Of a DNA stretch of 51,290 bases, positions 46,247 to 51,290 are shown in pieces. How positions within the stretch are numbered: the first letter of the stretch is position 1; each line of letters opens with the position of its first letter. The DNA lies in assembly GCA_963755715.1 (NCBI GenBank), contig CAVWLW010000022.1, positions 1 to 51,290 on the forward strand, written 5' to 3'. The stretch is from an uncultured delta proteobacterium (GTDB lineage: Bacteria; Desulfobacterota; Binatia; UBA9968). A model generated the notes under the pieces. The model did not search any database and had not been told where the DNA came from. It saw only the letters and a list, made by a program, of their open reading frames with translations. The position numbers were made by a program, and so were the translations under genes.

Positions 46247-46725
46247 TTTCCGGTTATCGTCTGTATCCAGTGCGCCGCGCCGCCAGTTTTAAGGCACTCC
46301 CAGTCATCATGCTCGGCTTCGGACTTTATCGCGCAGCGATTGGTTGGCGATCTGATATTCGCTAACCGTTTATCAATCAATAAAAATTTTACCTGGCCGT
46401 CGGCGCCGGATCGTGCCAATGTTACTCTGATAGATTTAGCTATTGCGCTCCGTCCAAAAAGTCACGCTCCTATTTTACCGCAACCAAGTCCATCGGCGAT
46501 CTCATAATAACAGCGGAAACTTCAGAAAAACCTCAAAAAGAATTTCGTAAAGGCGCTCAATCCACTTGTATTGGCACGATGAGCCGGTGTTATCTGCGAT
46601 CGTTGCACAACCATCTGGCGTGTATTATGAGGTGGTCAGTCTCACATCTTTGCGCGAAGAGTCCTGTCCCAACCCATCGCTTTCGAACCGGAGTGCGTGC
46701 CCGGTTTATGAACAGGAGGATAAGG

Positions 46726-49700
46726 ATGATTGAGCCCGCTTCGACGAACCAAATTATTCGGACGGGCGGGCCGGACCGTGGCGCGAATTCTCCAATACGG
46801 CTCTTAACCGTTGGCCTGCTGGTTGGTGCGGCGTACTATATCGGCTCGTTGATTGGTTTCGCTCTTACGTTTCCGGACAGCGCAGTCTCCGTACTCTGGC
46901 CTCCGAACGCGATTGTCTTCACCGCGCTACTGCTCATGCCGATTCGAAGATGGTGGGTAGTGCTTCTCGGCGTTTTTCCGGTCCACATAGCCGTCCAGTT
47001 ACAGAGCGGCGTGCCAATTTTGCTGATTCTGTTTTGGTTTATTAGCAACGCTGCGGAAGCATTGATCGGCGCAATTTGTCTGCGCCGTTTCGTCGAACGT
47101 CAAGCAGATTTTGCCGGTCTAAAAAACCTCGCTATCTACCTCGCTGTGGCGATTCTCGCGCCGTTTCTGGGCTCTTTTATCGATGCGTCATTCGTCTCGC
47201 TCGTCGGCTGGAAAGGAAATACTTATTGGCAAACTTGGCTGATGCGCTTTCCATCGAATGTTCTGGCCGCCCTCATGATTCCTCCCCTCGCTATCCTATG
47301 GTTTGATCGCGGTGCGGCTTTCTTGCGCAGCATTTCCTGGTGGCGGGGTGCCGAGGCTTCTATTTTGGCATTTGGGCTGATCACGACCGGTTTGACGGTA
47401 TTCTGTTGGGCAACAGTCGGCCCAGGAGCGATGACGGTATTGATTTATTTGCCGCTGCCGTTTTTTCTGTGGGCCGCGGTGAGATTTGGACAACTGGGAG
47501 CGAGCACGGCATTTTTGCTCGTTGTGATGACATCAATTTGTGGTGCTTTCCAGGGGAATGGTCCTTTTCTCAGCCAATTCCCCGCAAGGAATGTTTTATC
47601 TCTTCAGCTCTTTCTCATTGCAATTGTTCTCCCGATGATGTTTCTCGCCGCGTTTGTCGAGGAGCAAAAGTACAAAACGGAAGTCGTACGTGAGATCAAG
47701 CCGTGGAGCGCGGCCTTCAATGGTAAACGACTATCCCTGTACCTTAGTCTCGGACTGACTGCGATCGCGATGTGGGCCGCCTACTATTTTGGCTCTTTGG
47801 TGGATCTGGCGTTCGTGTATCCAGCGTCGTATTTCTCCGCCCTTTGGCCTGCCAATGCAGTTCTCCTAGCTGCGCTGTTGCTTAATCCACCACGCTACTG
47901 GTCGGTGTTCTTGCTGGCTGGTGCAGTTGCTCACGTCGTCGCCCAGAGACAGTTCGGCACTCCCGGATTGGAGCTTGACCTATACTACCTCTACGATTGC
48001 GCTCTTGTGGCAGTGACGGCCTTAGCCGTACGCCAATTCGGAGCAATCAATGGCGATCTTGGAAATTTGCGCCGTAGCATTATCTTCGTAGGCCAAATCA
48101 CCGCAGCCACCGCTTTGATGGCTTGGGGCTGGCCGCTAATCCAAATTTCCGTCGGCTATGGAAGCGACAACATTTGGTTGGAATGGCGTCATGCATTTTT
48201 ATCTAACTTATTGCCCTTCTTAATCCTAACTCCGGGTATCGTACTCGGTTCGACCCGCGGAGCCGAAATCATCAAGAGAGCTTCCCTCAAACAGTGGATG
48301 GAGATGATCGTCATACTAGCGGGGGTACTCGGCAGCGGTATTGGAGTGTTTGGTCTAAAATCACACGCCTTGGGCAACTTCCCTGCGCTGCTCTATATTC
48401 CCCTGCCGTTCTTGTTGTGGGCAGCGGTTCGCTTGGGACTGGTTGGCCTGTCGCTTTCATTTCTAGCGTTTGCGTTCATGACGATGTTGAATGCACTTGC
48501 TGGCAATGGTCCGTTCGTTAGCCAATTGCCGGCCGATAATGTTTTTTGGCTACAGATGTTCTTGATTGTTCTTTATTTCCCGCTTCTTCTGCTGGCGTCT
48601 CTTTTTGAAGAACGGTTTGAGAAAATCCAGATCCTCGGCGAGACGGAAAATCGGTTTCGAAATCTTGCGGACGCGGCGCCCATAATGATCTGGGTATCCA
48701 ACACGGACAAACTTTGCTCGTTTTTTAGCAAAGGTTGGCTCGACTTCACGGGACGAACGCTTGACCAGGAGCTTGGCAACGGCTGGTCCGAAGGAGTGCA
48801 CCCGGACGATCTCGATCGTTGTCTTCGGACGTACATGGAATCCTTTGACAGACGGCAAGACTTTTCGATGGAATATCGGTTGCGCAGAGCTGACGGCGAA
48901 TATCGATGGATTCTCAATAACGGTATGCCGCGCTTCGGGCCCGACGGCATCTTCCTCGGGTATATGGGTTCTGCCGTGGATATAAGCGAGCGCAAGCAAG
49001 CGGAGTCCCGGCTAAATGCACAATACGACATCACCCGGATACTTTCGGAGTCTGCTTCGATGGCCGAGGCTGCGCCGAAAATCTTGCAATCGATCTGCTC
49101 CTGTCTTGATTGGCAATACGGCGAAATTTGGCAAGTAGACCAGGAAACAAACATCCTGACATCTCGCGCAAGCTGGCACTTGCCATCGCAAGACTTAGCC
49201 GAATTCTGGTCCGCGAGTCGGCAAGTTACCTTTGCCCCCGGTGTCGGTTCGCCGGGCCGCGTTTGGCAAACCTGTCAACCCACGTGGATTCCCGACGTAA
49301 CGGCTGATAACAATTTTTCGCGCAAGTCGTTGGCCGCCGAGGCAGGTCTTCATAGCGCTTGCGCGTTCCCCATCCATCGAGGCGACGAGGCCTTCGGTGT
49401 CATGGGTTTTTTTAGCCGCGAGATTCGTAAGCCCGACGAAGTGCTGCTCCAAATGATGTCTAACGTCGGCAGCCAAATGGGACTGTTCGTTGAGCGCAAG
49501 CGGGCGGAGCGGGCCCTTCGTGAAAGCGAGGCGCGACTGAAGCTGGCAATGGAAAGTGCTCGTATGGGGTATTGGGAATTGGAAGTTGACACTCGCAAGG
49601 TTACACGGTCTGAGGGACTAGAGCGCATATTGGGTGTGACTCCGGGAAGCCTGAAATCGAATCTGGCAGATTTTTTGGCCATGGTCCATCCGGAAGATCG

Positions 49701-51290
49701 CGAGAAGATTCGCTTGCGAGCTGAGCGAGCTCTTCAGACCACGGAAATTTCCGATAGTGAATATCGAATCGTCCGGCCTGACGGTTCGATTCGCTGGATC
49801 GCCGGGCGAGGCCACGCGATTTTTGGGTCCGATGGTCACGTCTCGGTATTGCTCGGGTTATCTACCGACATCACCGAGCGCAAGCAAGTCGAGGAGGCGC
49901 TACGCGATAGCGAAAGTCTGCGGCGCACAATTTTTGAGTCAGAACCGGAATGTGTGAAACTGGTGGCACCCGATACTCGCTTGTTGGATATGAATCCGGC
50001 CGGATTAGCCATAATTCAGGCTGATTCTTTAGACGATGTCGTCGGACAGTCCGTTCTCGCGATCGTCGCGCCGGAGTGGCGCGCTACCTATAAAAAACTG
50101 CACGACCGGGTTTGTCAGGGAGAAAGAGGAGTCGCCCAGTTTGAAATCGTGGGACTCAAGGGCAAGCGACGCTGGATGGAGTCGCACGCTGCGCCGCTGC
50201 GGGCGAAGAACGGAAGTATCGTCGCGCAACTTGCGGTCAGTCATGACATCACGGACCGCAAGCGAGCGGAGGAAGAGTTGAAGGAGGCACTAGCGGAGGT
50301 GGAGCGGTTAAAGGAGCGGTTGGAAGCGGAGAACGTGTATTTGCGCTCTGAGGTATCGGGGGTTCATCGGTACGGCGAGATCCTCGGGGAGAGTAAAGGG
50401 ATCGAGAAGGTTTTAGAGCAAGTGGAGCGGGTGGCGCGGACGGACATGACGGTATTGGTGTTGGGCGAGACCGGGACGGGAAAAGAATTGGTGGCGCGAT
50501 TGTTACATGAGAAGAGCGGGCGGCGGGAGCGGCCGTTGGTGAAGGTGAACTGTTCGGCACTGCCGGCGGAGCTGATCGAGAGTGAACTGTTTGGTCATGA
50601 GCGGGGAGCGTTTACGGGGGCGGTATCCAAGCAGGTGGGACGGTTTGAGTTAGCCGATGGTGGGACGATATTTTTGGACGAGGTGGGCGAGTTGCCGTTA
50701 AGGCTGCAGTCGAAGTTATTGAGGGTATTGCAGGAGGGGGAGTTTGAGCGGGTGGGGAGCGGCAAGACGGTCAAGGTCGATGTGCGGGTGATCGCGGCGA
50801 CTAATCGCAATCTGAGTGAAGCGGCGCAACGGGGGAGATTTCGCACCGATTTATACTATCGATTAAATGTTTATCCGATCGAGATTCCGCCGCTGAGGGA
50901 GCGCAGAGAAGATATTGGAATATTGGCAGAGGTATTTTTACAGGAAGCGGGGCGGCGGTTGGGGAAGAGTTTTGGGCAGATACCGAGTGAAGTGATCGAA
51001 GCGTTGCAGGGCTACAGTTGGCCCGGCAACGTGCGCGAGTTGGAGAATGTGATCGGCAGAGCGACCGTCACCTCCACAGGTCTAACCCTCCAACTGCCCG
51101 AAGGATGGAATCAGGCTCAAGGGGCCGAGATTTTTTCACATGCATCACCTTCTGGACTAACTCCAGAAAAAAGCAAAAGCCAGAATGACGGTGGGGAGCT
51201 GCCCTTAACGCTGGAGGAGTTCGAAAGGACACGAATCCTTAAGGTCTTGCATCAAACGAATTGGCGGATTGAGGGGCCGAAGGGGGCGGC
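46726..51290 (+). CDS. membrane-bound sigma-54 enhancer-binding protein, MASE1-MASE1-PAS-GAF-PAS-PAS-AAA+-HTH (3' truncated, >1520 aa; not in ORF track)
   Basis: Hand-translated open frame from ATG 46726 (AGGAGG upstream) to the window end. MASE1-like motifs SVLWPPNA and SALWPANA; PAS motifs VHPDD and DITERK; GETGTGKE at 50464-50487; ESELFGHERGAFTGA; WPGNVRELEN; FhlA-type HTH start TNWRIEGPKGA. Confidence 0.9.
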   Translation, partial: MIEPASTNQIIRTGGPDRGANSPIRLLTVGLLVGAAYYIGSLIGFALTFPDSAVSVLWPPNAIVFTALLLMPIRRWWVVLLGVFPVHIAVQLQSGVPILLILFWFISNAAEALIGAICLRRFVERQADFAGLKNLAIYLAVAILAPFLGSFIDASFVSLVGWKGNTYWQTWLMRFPSNVLAALMIPPLAILWFDRGAAFLRSISWWRGAEASILAFGLITTGLTVFCWATVGPGAMTVLIYLPLPFFLWAAVRFGQLGASTAFLLVVMTSICGAFQGNGPFLSQFPARNVLSLQLFLIAIVLPMMFLAAFVEEQKYKTEVVREIKPWSAAFNGKRLSLYLSLGLTAIAMWAAYYFGSLVDLAFVYPASYFSALWPANAVLLAALLLNPPRYWSVFLLAGAVAHVVAQRQFGTPGLELDLYYLYDCALVAVTALAVRQFGAINGDLGNLRRSIIFVGQITAATALMAWGWPLIQISVGYGSDNIWLEWRHAFLSNLLPFLILTPGIVLGSTRGAEIIKRASLKQWMEMIVILAGVLGSGIGVFGLKSHALGNFPALLYIPLPFLLWAAVRLGLVGLSLSFLAFAFMTMLNALAGNGPFVSQLPADNVFWLQMFLIVLYFPLLLLASLFEERFEKIQILGETENRFRNLADAAPIMIWVSNTDKLCSFFSKGWLDFTGRTLDQELGNGWSEGVHPDDLDRCLRTYMESFDRRQDFSMEYRLRRADGEYRWILNNGMPRFGPDGIFLGYMGSAVDISERKQAESRLNAQYDITRILSESASMAEAAPKILQSICSCLDWQYGEIWQVDQETNILTSRASWHLPSQDLAEFWSASRQVTFAPGVGSPGRVWQTCQPTWIPDVTADNNFSRKSLAAEAGLHSACAFPIHRGDEAFGVMGFFSREIRKPDEVLLQMMSNVGSQMGLFVERKRAERALRESEARLKLAMESARMGYWELEVDTRKVTRSEGLERILGVTPGSLKSNLADFLAMVHPEDREKIRLRAERALQTTEISDSEYRIVRPDGSIRWIAGRGHAIFGSDGHVSVLLGLSTDITERKQVEEALRDSESLRRTIFESEPECVKLVAPDTRLLDMNPAGLAIIQADSLDDVVGQSVLAIVAPEWRATYKKLHDRVCQGERGVAQFEIVGLKGKRRWMESHAAPLRAKNGSIVAQLAVSHDITDRKRAEEELKEALAEVERLKERLEAENVYLRSEVSGVHRYGEILGESKGIEKVLEQVERVARTDMTVLVLGETGTGKELVARLLHEKSGRRERPLVKVNCSALPAELIESELFGHERGAFTGAVSKQVGRFELADGGTIFLDEVGELPLRLQSKLLRVLQEGEFERVGSGKTVKVDVRVIAATNRNLSEAAQRGRFRTDLYYRLNVYPIEIPPLRERREDIGILAEVFLQEAGRRLGKSFGQIPSEVIEALQGYSWPGNVRELENVIGRATVTSTGLTLQLPEGWNQAQGAEIFSHASPSGLTPEKSKSQNDGGELPLTLEEFERTRILKVLHQTNWRIEGPKGA

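Follow-up and report, generated by a model that had tools for sequence, protein, structure and literature searches.

A sigma-54 activator with a predicted double-MASE1 membrane anchor, and its candidate target operon in related genomes

We analyzed a window of 51,290 nucleotides (nt) that constitutes the entire contig C22 (CAVWLW010000022.1) of a 7.4-Mb, 76-contig genome assembly (G000; GCA_963755715.1) from an uncultured member of the Binatia, and focused on the large gene that runs off its right-hand end; coordinates refer to the whole window throughout. Judged by its domain content, this gene belongs fully to the sigma-54 activator family, with an unusual double-MASE1 membrane anchor as its input part; the architecture is uncharacterised, yet a variant within the sigma-54 activators and not a new kind of system. 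We propose, at a probability of roughly 0.6, that its product is a membrane-resident one-component enhancer-binding protein that drives an adjacent operon. The proposal draws on the domain structure of the protein, on the presence of the same fusion in independent sequences, and on a promoter, a palindrome and a kinase operon that lie downstream of related genes.

The gene occupies one open reading frame from 46579 to 51288, within which the probable start is the ATG at 46726, preceded by GGAGGATAAGG and opening on the same initial residues as P0003, a 1551-residue protein of the public protein collection that is 99% identical. The initial annotation had reported an uninterrupted frame of more than 1520 codons, and 1521 codons can be counted from 46726. 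Because the window is the entire contig, the gene is truncated by the contig end and not by a stop codon, and the length of P0003 indicates that about 30 codons are absent here. A continuation of the gene was not found on other contig ends of the assembly, where there was neither a k-mer overlap nor a start resembling a helix-turn-helix (HTH) domain. The features of the gene, all on the plus strand, are as follows.

46711..46721, plus strand: ribosome-binding site GGAGGATAAGG, read from the sequence ahead of the ATG at 46726
46726..51288, plus strand: coding sequence of the sigma-54 activator, truncated at the contig end after 1521 of its roughly 1551 codons
46813..47670, plus strand: MASE1 copy A, residues 30-315 (Pfam; 103.7 bits in the genome search; about eight long membrane helices in the AlphaFold model)
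47767..48615, plus strand: MASE1 copy B (67.8 bits in the genome search; about eight long helices in the model)
48652..48984, plus strand: PAS domain 1, residues 643-753 (Pfam; helix 602-644 of the model leads in from the last membrane helix)
49054..49491, plus strand: GAF domain, residues 777-922 (Pfam GAF_2, 55.8 bits)
49600..49857, plus strand: PAS domain 2, PAS_3, residues 959-1044 (Pfam)
49933..50265, plus strand: PAS domain 3, PAS_4, residues 1070-1180 (Pfam)
50245..51110, plus strand: segment of linker, AAA+ domain and lid, residues 1174-1462, repeated in the related genome G018
50272..50379, plus strand: charged helical linker containing KRAEEELKEALAEVERLKERLEAENVYLRSEV, about residues 1183-1215, joining PAS domain 3 to the AAA+ domain (read from the translation)
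50380..50883, plus strand: Sigma54_activat AAA+ domain, residues 1219-1386 (Pfam PF00158, 245.6 bits against a cut-off of 20.2)
50896..51093, plus strand: AAA+ lid, AAA_lid_14, residues 1391-1456 (Pfam)
51208..51288, plus strand: first 27 residues of a Fis-type HTH (HTH_8, 27.9 bits, residues 1495-1539 in P0003)

The output half carries every motif expected of an enhancer-binding ATPase that the initial annotation had read from it: Walker A (GETGTGKE, 50464-50487, residues 1247-1254) and Walker B (IFLDE, 50668-50682, residues 1315-1319) are intact, and so is the sigma-54 contact loop GAFTGA, which lies exactly where it had been placed (50605-50622, residues 1294-1299). The annotated order PAS-GAF-PAS-PAS was likewise matched by Pfam in all four domains. 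What had been called a coiled coil reads, in the translation, as the charged helical linker. The HTH that had been described is a Fis-type HTH_8 in the full-length P0003, but only its beginning is present in the window, which ends at residue 1521. As had been noted, a receiver domain is lacking: Pfam gave no Response_reg (PF00072) match in the activator at E values up to 0.01, which sets it apart from activators of the NtrC type, nor did it match Trans_reg_C. The genome encodes a partner for such a protein, with one Sigma54_DBD match for rpoN (213.3 bits, contig C34). Among its 31 genes with a strong Sigma54_activat match, a membrane-like N-terminus was seen in the double-MASE1 gene and in one other, on contig C68.

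Pfam, the genome search and the AlphaFold model agree on a polytopic N-terminus with two MASE1 copies, as originally read from the letters. Both copies exceed the cut-off of the MASE1 profile (PF05231, 29.8 bits), and they align with each other without gaps over 291 residues at 35% identity (E 7e-47). The model, computed for residues 1-645 with 42 aligned relatives (31-76% identity to the first 645 residues), reached a mean predicted local distance difference test (pLDDT) of 78.6 and a predicted template modelling score (pTM) of 0.78. It contains about eight long helices per copy, with which the hydropathy peaks roughly agree, and MASE1 was reportedly described from the outset as having about eight membrane helices. 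Two tandem MASE1 modules comprising about 16 helices and some 625 membrane residues are thus predicted to anchor the activator. Between the copies the model shows a disordered charged linker (residues 320-337), which, like the N-terminal tail (residues 1-22), is rich in lysine and arginine; given this and the even helix count per copy, both termini and all soluble domains are predicted to be cytoplasmic. Helix 602-644 continues from the last membrane helix straight towards PAS domain 1. A Foldseek comparison of the MASE1 model with the PDB gave no match at E 0.001 or better.

Since the window ends before the stop codon, we sought the target of the activator in relatives, and the promoter, palindrome and target operon described here were observed in those relatives only. 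A promoter match was defined as a −24/−12 element that retains both GG and GC and has no more than two mismatches, on the same strand as the activator gene and in the intergenic stretch downstream of it. A −24/−12 promoter near the downstream genes had been named in the initial annotation as a check on the reading, and one was present just downstream in five of the six distinct complete MASE1-activator loci (those of genomes G018, G003, G019 and G013 and the metagenome locus L074, but not that of G017), while nothing above chance appeared in the window itself, where 19 matches with up to two mismatches compare with 22.5 expected and none is upstream of or near the activator gene. The G018 locus is from the same genus, and there a 386-bp spacer after the stop codon holds TGGCACCCTAATTGCG on the strand of the gene, 40 nt before the next gene. 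That gene encodes a 277-residue HisKA_3/HATPase kinase without a membrane segment or recognised sensor domain, and is followed by two LuxR-type response regulators and then an OmpA-family protein; matches were to MctS and UhpB for the kinase, in their catalytic halves, and to MctR and NarL for the regulators. The corresponding elements are TGGCATCTCCATTGCT ahead of two LuxR-type regulators in G003, TGGCTCTCGGATTGCT ahead of a HisKA_3 kinase in G019, TGGCATTGCTCTTGCT ahead of a HisKA kinase in G013, and TGGCATTGGAATTGCG ahead of a kinase and two regulators in L074 (of which L075 is the same gene), so that the gene after the activator is a small kinase in four of the six loci and a LuxR-type regulator in one. 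When six loci (L027, L030, L060, L061, L062 and L033; 81.5 kb) were scanned on both strands, four of the seven matches with at most one mismatch fell in the downstream spacers, which make up about 2.1 kb of the DNA scanned.

A 6-4-6 palindrome, CCRCGA-N4-TCGYGG, follows closely on the stop codon; G019 and G013 have perfect copies of it, and that of G018 deviates at one position. By post hoc counts with at most one mismatch, it occurs once each in L027 (G018, 20 kb), L060 (G019, 18 kb) and L061 (G013, 8.5 kb), and L074 has two sites, 12 and 44 nt past the stop. The promoter matches follow the palindromes at 100-330 bp, within the range typical of enhancers for sigma-54 activators. The 7.4-Mb genome of the window contains two exact palindromes, about the chance level; both (on contigs C6 and C71) are intragenic and neither is accompanied by a promoter match, and they were dropped as targets. 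A complex prediction for the double-MASE1 part with the small kinase of G018 scored 0.00, which speaks neither for nor against binding. The gene order kinase, regulator, regulator, OmpA-family protein and next large activator recurs in G019 (L060 2124-10536) and G018 (L027 6308-14488), and in these clusters activator-promoter-kinase units seem to be strung in series.

We propose that the activator would receive membrane signals through MASE1 and cytoplasmic signals through its PAS and GAF domains, with the helical linker relaying both to assembly of the AAA+ ring. The PAS-GAF-PAS-PAS chain, about 590 residues long, would keep the AAA+ domain and the Fis-type HTH at a distance from the membrane that should leave room for the ring and for RNA polymerase. 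The ring would bind the palindromic enhancer just past the activator's own stop codon and, using ATP and the GAFTGA loop, open the sigma-54 promoter 100-330 bp beyond it, which in turn would drive the soluble, sensor-less histidine kinase and the two LuxR/NarL-type response regulators. With a kinase that lacks a sensor and two regulators as the target, the signal would be relayed as kinase abundance. With the enhancer sited at the 3' end of the gene that encodes its activator, the target DNA may stay close to where the protein is inserted co-translationally into the membrane. DNA binding, action at the membrane and this cascade logic are what we infer from the arrangement of domains and sites. 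A more far-reaching version is speculative, and we consider it doubtful: membrane-integral sigma-54 activators would form an undescribed working class in which a ring under the membrane acts on an enhancer at the end of its own gene, the DNA being brought there by co-translational insertion. The present case would then be a UhpB-like MASE1 kinase taken apart, with the doubled MASE1 serving as an S-component-like ligand-binding pair that controls transcription, not phosphorylation, of a sensor-less kinase core.

Several observations weigh against the proposal. In the genome of the window, the stop codon, enhancer, promoter and target would all lie beyond the contig end, and the downstream DNA of G018 was not found in its assembly (93.6% complete). 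The window and the G018 orthologue become similar at the DNA level only from 46585 onwards, 141 nt ahead of the start codon, and have different genes upstream, so that a shared downstream context is an assumption. The G017 locus, one of the six, has neither a promoter match nor a kinase. The palindrome was first noticed by inspection, which is what makes its counts post hoc. The double-MASE1 gene of G003 (L030 3026-7703) is frameshifted into two overlapping frames of 1198 and 365 residues by one extra base just upstream of an ENVYLR motif, relative to the intact 1561-residue P0005; the frameshift is either a sequencing error or the mark of a decaying copy, and a natural two-gene form was rejected on account of this one-base difference. 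A soil RNA run (X16) gave only short pieces, 95-99% alike, and as the run may contain DNA it was not accepted as proof of transcription. The genes upstream of the activator in the window are rpoA, rplQ, a cupin, a 3-hydroxyisobutyrate-dehydrogenase-like gene and a Tpt1/KptA RNA 2'-phosphotransferase, none of which adjoins the activator gene in G018.

We regard it as very improbable that the fusion is an assembly artefact arising through an 866-bp repeat, or a decaying gene from which no such protein is made. The segment from 50245 to 51110 is 96.7% identical to part of a second sigma-54 activator gene 8 kb away in G018, and the two G018 copies (L027 15146-16011 and 6624-7489) are 99.1% identical over 866 bp with unrelated flanks. 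Metagenome unitigs break at 50245 and continue into several other left-hand partners, and the contig ends 180 nt past the repeat; these breaks and the early contig end are probably caused by the near-identical segment. The repeat is nevertheless unable to create the fusion, because recombination within it would in any case leave a MASE1 sensor in frame with a sigma-54 AAA+ domain, because beyond it the window continues to match the G018 orthologue and not the second gene, and because divergent relatives (31-76% identity to the first 645 residues) carry the same fusion in single frames. The frameshifted G003 copy lends the dead-gene variant some support, but the orthologue in G018 is 96% identical and forms a single 1551-residue frame. 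A mis-join between the sensor and AAA+ parts, which the initial annotation had named as what would refute it, is further contradicted by the 99% identical, 1551-residue P0003 and by soil-metagenome contigs from separate studies that cross the domain borders: one covers 47752-49805, from MASE1 copy B through PAS domain 2, with 11 differences, and another covers 48619-50274 with six differences, spanning PAS domain 1 to 30 nt inside the repeat. A soil-metagenome contig also covers 50245-50556. The shared segment itself looks like the product of gene conversion between neighbouring paralogues, which may keep the ATPase core uniform. The sensor and HTH parts of the two G018 activators that share it differ from each other.

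Two other modes of action would accept the fusion and assign the membrane part a different role. The membrane form could be a stored precursor from which a protease frees a PAS-AAA+-HTH fragment, either by cutting off the MASE1 part or by N-terminal digestion that pauses at domain borders, to give soluble hexamers acting on the same promoter. In Escherichia coli DgcE (MASE1-PAS3-GGDEF-EAL), membrane insertion leads to processive N-to-C proteolysis with ladders of C-terminal fragments (PMC6510439), a precedent for a MASE1 anchor exposing a protein to degradation from its N-terminus, and about 96 membrane helices from six subunits around one ring look awkward. In the same study, however, DgcE proteolysis is constitutive and inactivating, and no protease gene lies beside the activator in the loci examined. 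Continuity of the last membrane helix into PAS domain 1 in the model is as expected of sensors that signal through such a helix, and the three unrelated membrane modules found on sigma-54 activators of the genus are each sensor-like in build; on this evidence we judge release by proteolysis possible but unlikely. Still less probable, in our view, is that MASE1 senses no small molecule and is a tether that keeps the protein off DNA or prevents ring assembly, with control exerted by PAS or GAF ligands or by a partner that docks on MASE1. What speaks for a tether is that the MASE1 of DgcE is a docking site for the cytoplasmic GTPase RdcA and is not shown there to bind a ligand (PMC6510439), but no conserved partner gene adjoins the activators in the loci seen. 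The preferred reading remains that of an activator that stays in the membrane and acts on the operon next to its own gene.

The fusion recurs in public data. Among the best 120 homologous clusters at 90% identity, 22 combine MASE1 with Sigma54_activat, four of them with a double MASE1 (P0003-P0006) and 18 with a single one, and almost all of the remainder are histidine kinases (HisKA/HATPase) of the build MASE1-PAS(-GAF), consistent with the initial statement that MASE1 usually feeds histidine kinases or GGDEF/EAL outputs. Among the best 150 representatives at 50% identity, from a search space of 1.84 billion, at least 14 are MASE1 proteins with an AAA+ domain, a lower bound, and all of these have a single MASE1. 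Within the 31 genomes of the genus, the double form is present in G000, G018 and G003 and the single form in G017, G013 and G019, a tally that leaves out one further, seventh genome, and a draw of 400 other genomes from the whole phylum gave no match to the 645-residue N-terminus at 1e-20. Three sigma-54 activators, along with three short fragments of the double form, were among the 80 metagenome loci with the closest MASE1 domains, and a search of genome contigs with P0003 gave two useful loci. On other contigs of the genome of the window there are a MASE1-GAF-HisKA-HATPase kinase (C41, L040) and a MASE1 match split over two frames, possibly a broken gene (C10 44063-44951).

The label of an undescribed system, given at the outset, holds insofar as a full-text literature search found no study on MASE1 or membrane-anchored sigma-54 activators, but the layout is not unique: public sources already list such fusion proteins, named generically as 'PAS domain S-box protein', 'sigma 54-interacting transcriptional regulator' or 'formate hydrogenlyase transcriptional activator'. 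One portion of Kazakov 2015 describes DVU0151 only with a 'long conserved N-terminal region' and does not refer to it as a membrane protein (PMC4641369). A further qualification is that two other kinds of membrane anchor are attached to sigma-54 activators in the same genus. One kind is found in L027 (6308-10324, in G018, 1338 residues) and L033 (4756-8295, 1179 residues), where two membrane helices flank an ABC_sub_bind-like domain (about 320 residues) and PAS, AAA+ and HTH domains follow. The L033 activator is 67% identical to residues 629-1546 of the double-MASE1 protein and the genes after it likewise encode a HisKA_3 kinase and two regulators of the LuxR type, with a weaker promoter-like site, TGGTATTAAAATTGCG. 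These two activators are built like classical kinases that sense in the periplasm, except that their output is transcription activation. The other kind is the protein on contig C68 (L063 1118-3160), a 680-residue 6TM_PilS-PAS-Sigma54_activat-HTH_8 protein encoded directly after a T2SSF (PilC-like) gene, which seems to combine a PilS sensor with an output of the PilR type. PAS, Sigma54_activat and HTH_8 are shared by all of these activators, but none of those with the other anchors seen here has a double MASE1. Three unrelated membrane modules feed sigma-54 activators in the genus.

Sigma-54 activators are the textbook soluble ring ATPases, which reach their promoter by DNA looping. Fixation in the membrane by 16 helices raises the questions of how the ring assembles and how the DNA arrives at the membrane, and both can be addressed compactly in the G018-type locus, where about 7 kb hold the sensor, enhancer, promoter and target. 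The two further membrane modules in the genus also make it possible to ask which of the two, membrane-bound action or cleavage and release, is the general rule. The arrangement suggests a little-noticed signal wiring in which a one-component sensor sets the level of a sensor-less kinase, and an S-component-like MASE1 fold, if confirmed, would be the first structural idea of what the widespread MASE1 domain senses.

In its output half, the activator resembles FhlA, NifA and NorR, which are receiver-less, with N-terminal sensors, a GAFTGA-bearing AAA+ domain and a C-terminal Fis-type HTH. These three are also its best NCBIfam matches, but over the AAA+-HTH end only (residues 1156-1543) and with scores below the cut-offs (NifA, 398.5 against 528.85; FhlA, 391.4 against 830; NorR, 376.2 against 476), and no NCBIfam equivalog reaches its curated cut-off for the activator. 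FhlA, NifA and NorR are soluble proteins of 500-700 residues; unlike them, the activator described here begins with about 625 membrane residues and also has three PAS domains ahead of its output half. From the side of the sensor, the closest MASE1 relatives among the listed clusters are MASE1-PAS-GAF kinases, which brings the protein near kinases of the UhpB/MctS type, UhpB itself carrying MASE1. In contrast to that type, the MASE1 sensor and the HisKA_3 core are separate proteins here, apparently linked through a sigma-54 promoter. Proteins of the ToxR/CadC type also unite a sensor and a DNA-binding domain in one membrane protein and often act on a nearby gene, but they have an N-terminal winged helix, one membrane helix and a periplasmic sensor and work at sigma-70 promoters without ATP, whereas the present activator, to judge from its motifs and predicted topology, has 16 helices and a C-terminal HTH and would need an ATP-driven ring. 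Finally, it resembles DgcE in having an N-terminal MASE1, a chain of PAS domains and a C-terminal output that requires oligomerisation (PMC6510439). The two differ in that DgcE has one MASE1 and synthesizes cyclic di-GMP as dimers, whereas the activator of the window has two, and its output would be transcription, driven by a ring on DNA.

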